Below are positions 10,533-11,420 of a stretch of DNA of 43,657 bases, piece after piece. Where the stretch lies: NCBI RefSeq assembly GCF_003334315.1, contig NZ_QOWR01000041.1; one strand, written 5' to 3'. The position numbers and the translations under genes were made by a program. The notes under the pieces are model-generated. The model had not been told where the DNA came from, made no database searches, and was given only the letters and a program-made list of their open reading frames with translations. Every line of letters starts with the position of its first letter. Position 1 is the stretch's first letter. The DNA comes from Escherichia coli. Its GTDB lineage: Bacteria; Pseudomonadota; Gammaproteobacteria; Enterobacterales; Enterobacteriaceae.

Positions 10533-11420
10533 GTGGTACGGCGTTTAACTTCTCCGCGGCTCGAATTTGAAGCTGCGGCAATTTATGAATATCCCGAACA
10601 TTTACGTTCATTCCTTAATGACTTACCCACCCGACCAGGGGTGTATCTGTTTCATGGCGAAAGTGACACCATGCCGCTCTATATCGGCAAAAGCGTTAAT
10701 ATCCGCAGTCGGGTGCTTTCTCATTTACGCACCCCGGATGAAGCCGCCATGCTACGGCAATCCCGGCGAATTAGCTGGATCTGCACCGCAGGCGAAATCG
10801 GCGCTCTGCTCCTTGAAGCGCGATTAATCAAAGAACAACAGCCACTGTTTAATAAACGGTTGCGCCGCAATCGCCAGCTCTGTGCCCTGCAATTAAATGA
10901 AAAGCGCGTCGATGTGGTGTATGCCAAAGAGGTGGATTTTTCACGAGCCCCCAACCTGTTTGGCCTGTTTGCCAATAGGCGCGCAGCTTTGCAAGCATTG
11001 CAGACCATCGCTGATGAACAAAAACTTTGTTATGGCCTGCTGGGACTGGAACCGTTAAGTCGCGGTCGTGCATGTTTTCGTTCAGCGCTAAAACGTTGCG
11101 CCGGAGCATGCTGCGGTAAAGAGAGCCATGAGGAACATGCGCTACGCTTGCGCCAGTCTCTGGAGCGTTTGCGGGTGGTGTGTTGGCCTTGGCAAGGTGC
11201 GGTGGCACTGAAAGAACAGCACCCGGAAATGACTCAATATCATATTATTCAAAACTGGCTGTGGCTGGGGGCGGTTAATTCGCTGGAAGACGCGACAACG
11301 TTAATTCGGACACCCGCCGGGTTTGATCACGACGGTTATAAAATTCTTTGTAAGCCGCTGCTTTCCGGTAACTATGAAATTACTGAACTTGATCCGGCGA
11401 ATGACCAGCGAGCCAGTTGA
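10533..11420 (+). CDS. cho: UvrC-homologue excinuclease Cho
   Basis: 295-aa ORF with a GIY-YIG-type N-terminus ([30 protein letters not shown]). Confidence 0.9.

Follow-up and report, generated by a model that had tools for sequence, protein, structure and literature searches.

Convergent genes that share their 3' ends form a well-described class in Escherichia coli, in which 75 convergent overlapping pairs have been counted (Huvet & Stumpf 2014, PMC4161906), and movement of stop codons is the accepted origin of such overlaps (PMC4161906; PMC2478687). The commonest codon phase among convergent overlaps of at least 5 nt is (123:132), which accounts for 49% of them (Lillo & Krakauer 2007, PMC2174442). 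The convergent orientation tolerates long overlaps, and an overlap is to be suspected only if it exceeds 60 bp (Pallejà et al., PMC2478687). A second described class is that of the convergent excludons, for which mscL-arfA is the characterised E. coli precedent (PMC10070815); cho-ves is one of the 165 convergent excludons that recur in 50% or more of the 58 RNA-seq samples of MG1655 surveyed (ExcludonFinder, NAR 2025, PMC12288877). The cho-ves overlap in the window (the whole 43.6-kb stretch of DNA analysed here) is real, ordinary and already known, since it stands in the K-12 reference annotation, belongs to a well-described class and has a catalogued transcriptional overlap. The additions made here are only a reconstruction of its origin and an Escherichia-specific hairpin downstream of cho.

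The sequence-only reading identified the two genes as cho and ves and described a tail-to-tail overlap of 41 bp, all of which was confirmed by the open reading frame list, direct reading, NCBIfam and RefSeq. Read directly, the stop of cho is a TGA on the plus strand and that of ves is a TTA on the same strand (11380-11382), that is, TAA on the minus strand, and each stop codon lies inside the opposite-strand frame of the partner gene. The 41 bp hold residues I283 to S295 and the stop of Cho, together with residues N180 to Q191, one base of I179 and the stop of Ves. An overlap of 41 bp is likewise found in K-12 (RefSeq NC_000913.3; cho 1823515-1824402, ves 1824362-1824937). Cho scores 579 bits against NCBIfam equivalog NF007833 (cut-off, 367 bits), with residues 1-287 aligned, and Ves scores 426 bits against NF008488 (cut-off, 292 bits), with all 191 profile positions aligned; 4,421 Cho homologues were retrieved at an E value of ≤1e-20. 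Substitution patterns by codon position are coding-like on both sides of the overlap, as befits two real genes. A sequence search of the PDB matched Cho residues 22-113 to the UvrC GIY-YIG domain alone and Ves residues 14-149 to HutD, leaving both C-termini uncovered. AlphaFold2 models built from 15-sequence alignments were unusable for judging disorder of the overlapping tails (mean pLDDT, 48.7 for Cho and 40.5 for Ves).

The locus was found in all 5,426 complete E. coli genomes, 5,425 of which cover at least 80% of the query at an identity of at least 95%, and the two most divergent listed genomes that were inspected (96.4-96.5% identity) keep the 41-bp geometry. With the strong equivalog scores, the presence of the locus in all 5,426 genomes and the unchanged geometry of the divergent strains, a different true stop for either gene, whether from a sequencing error or a wrong frame, is excluded. 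One of the 5,426 genomes, E. coli HCP4S3_I4 (NZ_CM149872.1; L082, 1-3000), has a cho truncated by the inserted end of a Mu-like prophage carrying com and mom; it retains ves, which still overlaps what is left of cho by 41 bp.

Two observations concern the start codons. The mechanically called ves frame opens at a TTG at 12018 on the minus strand and encodes 212 aa, with 21 extra codons (11956-12018), and the Ves family profile begins at residue 22 of that frame, the ATG at 11955. The annotated start of the 191-aa protein is the consistent one, because the FliA promoter overlaps the extra 21 codons and the profile begins at the ATG. Cho homologues of Salmonella, Enterobacter hormaechei and Kosakonia sacchari (P0018, P0084 and P0098; 301-302 aa) are entered with 9 more N-terminal residues than the E. 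coli protein has from its GTG start; the extension probably stems from differing start-codon calls, with no real variation behind it.

Features of the cho-ves junction and its surroundings (positions are those of the window; identities are pairwise, by codon position)
Feature	Position	Strand	Description
LexA-type palindrome CACTGGATAGATAACCAGCA	10500..10519	+	Promoter region of cho, 14 nt ahead of the start codon; the only exact match in the window
cho CDS (excinuclease Cho)	10533..11420	+	295 aa; GTG start; TGA stop 11418-11420; RefSeq b1741
ves CDS (HutD-family Ves)	11380..11955	-	191 aa; ATG at 11955; TAA stop 11382-11380; RefSeq b1742
Tail-to-tail CDS overlap of cho and ves	11380..11420		41 bp; codon phase (123:132); direct sequence reading
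Proximal overlap (Cho ITELDPA opposite Ves SPDQVQ)	11380..11400		cho position 3 identity, 0.89
9-nt stretch GATCCGGCG	11391..11399		Absent from Enterobacter, Leclercia and Lelliottia-type sequences; codon-by-codon comparison, 17 genera
Distal overlap (Cho tail opposite Ves NWLAGH)	11401..11420		ves position 2 identity, 0.92; ves position 3 identity, 0.66
cho-only sequence			cho position 3 identity, 0.54
ves-only sequence			ves position 2 identity, 0.95; ves position 3 identity, 0.59
Stem-loop ACCCTGCGGTT-gtaaa-AGCCGCAGGGT	11440..11466	+	20 nt past the cho stop, inside ves codons 164-173
ves promoter, FliA (sigma-28)	12008..12035	-	Exact match to AACGTAAATCACCCGAGTTGCCGATAAC, the FliA site assigned to ves (Fitzgerald et al., PMC4183435)

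The length of the overlap was compared across 80 Cho-encoding loci, one genome per species, by locating the cho and ves stops in each. Every sampled member of Escherichia and Citrobacter (17 loci), two genera whose Cho and Ves proteins are about 80% identical, has an overlap of 41 bp, and other values occur elsewhere: 32 bp in Leclercia, Silvania and some Enterobacter asburiae; 23 bp in most Enterobacter, Lelliottia and Pseudenterobacter; 15, 7, or 4 bp in Kosakonia, Phytobacter and their relatives; and either a 10-bp overlap or a 3-nt gap in Franconibacter. Three loci (L036, L041 and L072) are outliers with overlaps of 45 or 73 bp. Cedecea-type genomes have ves about 1.8 kb away from cho, and no ves was found within 3 kb of cho in the Klebsiella, Raoultella and Salmonella loci sampled. 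The variation is accompanied by differences in the protein ends. The conserved core of Cho closes with ...YEIIEL (L286) and is followed by 1 to 9 variable residues, some Cho proteins ending 1 to 2 residues past L286. Ves ends in ...WL(P/A)GH and measures 185 aa in most genera, versus 191 aa here, and the Ves proteins of Escherichia and Citrobacter add SPDxVQ.

Pseudescherichia-like genomes have a spacer of 28 to 48 nt between cho and ves. In these spacer-bearing genomes (L053, L056, L065 and L043) a strong GC-rich hairpin occupies the spacer. Folded in 36-nt segments, it reaches -16 to -32 kcal/mol on the plus strand and -27 to -32 kcal/mol on the minus strand, and it looks like a bidirectional terminator.

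Codon-by-codon alignment of the junction locates the difference between the 23-bp and 41-bp forms. After L286, E. coli reads CTT GAT CCG GCG AAT GAC... and Enterobacter reads CTC AAT GAC...; the downstream 37 nt align between the two without a gap, and the cho stop falls at the same aligned position. The 9 nt that differ, GATCCGGCG, fall within the ves stop codon of the other genera (minus strand, CAT T-CGCCGGATC-AA). Their effect is to turn the Ves end GH-stop into GH-SPDQVQ-stop and to give Cho residues D287, P288 and A289, so that the step from 23 to 41 bp is made up of 9 inserted nucleotides and 9 nucleotides of read-on. The 32-bp overlap seen in Leclercia and Silvania has a separate basis, a loss of the cho stop with reading on to the next TGA 9 nt downstream. 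By parsimony, the 9-nt event was probably an insertion in the ancestor of Escherichia and Citrobacter, the region being variable in the other genera.

A simple course of events would account for this arrangement. In most Enterobacteriaceae cho and ves abut with almost no spacer. In the Escherichia/Citrobacter ancestor, a 9-nt in-frame insertion would have landed inside the ves stop codon, after which translation of Ves would have continued for six codons (SPDQVQ) to the next stop, in antisense of cho. The same insertion would have given three residues (DPA) to a Cho tail that was already variable. The new tail of each gene is encoded opposite the conserved end of its partner, and for that reason the tails are probably in large part by-products of the constraint on the partner.

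The length itself calls for no special explanation. Phase (123:132) sets the first codon positions of the two genes against one another and pairs the second position of either gene with the third of its partner. Counted over the long open reading frames of the window, an antisense frame in this phase meets 0.0485 stops per codon, so that it stays open for about 19 codons on average and crosses 12 codons without a stop with a probability of 0.55. The overlap length is not beyond chance expectation.

The sequence-only reading also held that the overlap constrains both C-termini, and this claim stands in part. Pairwise identity by codon position was calculated for 15 Escherichia and Citrobacter species. 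The third positions of cho codons 283-285 have identities of 0.87, 1.00, and 1.00 in the group with the 41-bp overlap, versus 0.57, 0.49, and 0.55 in one group in which ves does not reach these codons and 0.38, 0.55, and 0.39 in another. As a background, only about 20% of the amino-acid-conserved cho codons attain an identity of ≥0.85; a rough binomial estimate for the invariance of codons 283-285 gives a P value of about 0.03 and rests on 3 to 7 columns. These few columns are weak evidence that the proximal part of the overlap may be doubly constrained. The distal part (11401-11420) has the substitution pattern of ves-only sequence, and therefore the distal Cho tail evolves as a passenger of Ves. 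The tails are lineage-specific additions; since they are missing from many functional orthologues, the constrained sequence is probably dispensable.

We consider it very probable that cho-ves is an ordinary convergent overlap: both genes are real, each is regulated on its own, and the overlap came about through neutral shifts of stop codons, not through any dedicated mechanism. Several points run against a wholly neutral history. The length is exactly 41 bp throughout Escherichia and Citrobacter, and the synonymous sites of cho codons 283-285 are unusually invariant, so that selection may act on the Ves extension in its own right. Whether the 9 nt were inserted here or deleted elsewhere is judged by parsimony, and the Escherichia-specific hairpin beyond the cho stop hints that RNA 3'-end formation may have been shaped by selection.

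That hairpin has an 11-bp stem, a 5-nt loop and a predicted stability of -23.1 kcal/mol, which makes it the second most stable 36-nt segment on the plus strand of the whole window. Four Escherichia lineages have it and keep the stem, their only differences being C-to-U changes that preserve pairing as G-U (K-12 has one such change relative to the window), and it is absent from Citrobacter and other genera. The stem pairs the codons of the conserved Ves residues T-L-R with Escherichia-specific codons for P-Q-G: the variable Ves residues at this place are Q-P-Q-G in Escherichia, where their codons are the reverse complement of the T-L-R codons, and K-A-E-G or similar in other genera. A ranking of the best hairpin near the stop in each genome was also tried and was uninformative outside Escherichia and the spacer genera, since some window among many will always rank first.

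Together with the closeness of the hairpin to the cho stop and the spacer hairpins of the spacer genera (-24 to -32 kcal/mol), these features favor a real function, in which the stem-loop would terminate cho mRNA or protect its 3' end from within ves and would replace an intergenic hairpin. We regard such a function as unlikely. No U-tract follows the hairpin on either strand (GUGCCUGCC on the plus strand and UAAACUGUUG on the minus strand) and the terminator scan gave no signal there, so it is not a canonical intrinsic terminator. Nor does it behave as a conserved structured RNA: across 60 enterobacterial sequences its positions were 67.7% paired, versus 67.3% in shuffled alignments, covariation was 0.150 versus 0.141, and Rfam contained no match to it. 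No 3' end is mapped to it in the one searchable Term-seq data set (PMC7815308), and the stem could be the neutral product of a templated (quasipalindrome) mutation. Its two candidate readings are a Rho-associated structure that protects the 3' end of cho mRNA and a neutral quasipalindrome. A fuller version, which we find distinctly unlikely, is that the loss of the spacer in Escherichia was compensated by a stem-loop inside ves through KAEG-to-QPQG substitutions, and that this stem-loop protects or defines the 3' end of the SOS-induced cho mRNA and limits its invasion of ves. If a function of this kind were true, the hairpin would be a terminator or stabiliser written into the codons of a convergent gene.

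The two genes have unrelated, condition-specific promoters. The palindrome upstream of cho is one that we take to be the known cho SOS box, as described by Fernandez de Henestrosa et al. 2000. A search for the strict LexA site CTGT-N8-ACAG found none in this sequence, the cho box being the variant CTGG-N8-CCAG. A published list counts cho among the SOS genes whose SOS box is known (PMC6590174). On the ves side there is the FliA promoter. A scan for promoters and terminators found no site resembling either in or beside the overlap, and an Rfam search of positions 9000-13500 returned no match in the overlap, its sole match being a REP-like element upstream of cho. In that nadE-cho spacer, Rfam reports ES036 (CssrF) sRNA (42.9 bits; gathering score, 37.6) and a subthreshold naRNA4 (CssrE), at positions 10383-10425 (+) and 10343-10379 (-), matches which probably reflect a REP-type palindromic element.

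The sequence-only reading further proposed that the 3' ends of the two transcripts are mutually antisense. This follows from the geometry, and the pair has been reported independently as an excludon (PMC12288877). Since nothing intergenic separates the two genes and they lack an intrinsic terminator between them, their full-length mRNAs must be complementary for 41 nt or more, and transcription that starts at either gene must run on into its partner. Such run-in would permit some transcriptional interference or processing of double-stranded RNA, though a dedicated regulatory role is unlikely.

Published 3'-end maps bear on how far such transcripts extend. The Term-seq tables of Adams et al. 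2021 (PMC7815308) contain, for the conditions tested, no 3' end at the cho/ves junction. They contain a bicyclomycin-sensitive 3' end 24 nt into cho (K-12 position 1823539; about 10557 of the window, plus strand), a region of Rho read-through at K-12 position 1823784 (about 10802 of the window, plus strand) and the spy terminator at K-12 position 1825060. The early, Rho-dependent signals suggest that, without induction, Rho cuts off most cho transcripts before they are complete. The SMRT-Cappable-seq supplements mention neither cho nor ves.

A functional convergent excludon would require that induction of cho through LexA and the SOS response lower ves, and that induction of ves through FliA or low temperature lower cho, by collision of RNA polymerases and RNase III cleavage of the complementary 3' ends, the overlap being kept for that purpose. 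The listing of the pair in the MG1655 excludome, its dissimilar promoters, the terminator-free junction, the widespread occurrence of the spacer-less convergent cho-ves arrangement in Enterobacteriaceae and the precedent of mscL-arfA all speak for this reading, which we nevertheless judge to be very unlikely. The listing is a coverage-based call (PMC12288877), and where coding sequences overlap, a pair is bound to be scored as an excludon once both genes are expressed; our literature search found no reciprocal expression or RNase III data for cho-ves. Both genes are weakly expressed, no 3' ends map to the junction, and under the conditions tested cho is largely stopped by Rho early in its open reading frame (PMC7815308). 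The overlap length is highly labile between genera, some of which carry a strong hairpin in a cho-ves spacer, and in Salmonella and Klebsiella cho does not have ves as its neighbour. A junction so labile, and the absence of ves beside cho in several genera, make a conserved regulatory coupling unlikely.

The weakest alternative, that the overlap is an annotation or sequencing artefact in which one gene ends earlier and the extra codons are untranslated, draws on the artificial 3' extensions behind many long convergent overlaps (Pallejà et al., PMC2478687), on C-termini that are longer in both E. coli proteins than in many orthologues and on the Cho equivalog alignment that stops at residue 287, yet it is scarcely credible and already effectively refuted: stop codons, unlike start codons, cannot be mis-called; strong homology fixes both frames up to the overlap, where the first in-frame stops are those at 11418-11420 and 11382-11380; the sequence is shared, at ≥95% identity, by 5,425 of the 5,426 complete genomes; independent assemblies from at least 15 species show the 41-bp geometry; and 41 bp is below the 60-bp range examined by Pallejà et al. 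(PMC2478687).

Read as an ordinary overlap with a neutral origin, the reconstruction serves as a textbook illustration of the birth of a convergent overlap, in which one 9-nt insertion in a stop codon lengthens both proteins. Were the excludon or the embedded-hairpin reading true, the locus would provide one more example of cross-talk between stress regulons, SOS on one side and FliA and low temperature on the other.

An orthologous arrangement for comparison is cho-spy of Salmonella enterica, which has an orthologous cho with the same conserved core end (...YEIIEL) and a convergent gene next to it. In Salmonella (L006, 3880-3960, subsp. arizonae; also L010) ves is absent and a 74-nt spacer separates cho from the convergent spy, so there is no overlap, and the Cho tail differs as well, ending in ELNTDCRQS (NTDCRQS after EL). 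With mscL-arfA (PMC10070815) and the members of the ExcludonFinder catalogue (PMC12288877), in which it is itself included, cho-ves shares the convergence of genes from different stress regulons with overlapping 3' transcripts. The antisense crosstalk of mscL-arfA was shown experimentally, whereas cho-ves has only the coverage-based call, and in cho-ves the overlap reaches beyond the untranslated regions into the coding sequences themselves. The closest likeness is to the approximately 75 convergent pairs of E. coli K-12 (PMC4161906; PMC2174442), which are, like cho-ves, two real genes on opposite strands that share their 3' ends. The pair has the stop-codon-movement origin, the commonest phase, the length of less than 60 bp and the conservation among close relatives only that mark this class, from which it shows no substantial difference. 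Its 41 bp exceed the very common 4-bp class, and it is set apart by an originating event that can be reconstructed, a 9-nt insertion within a stop codon.
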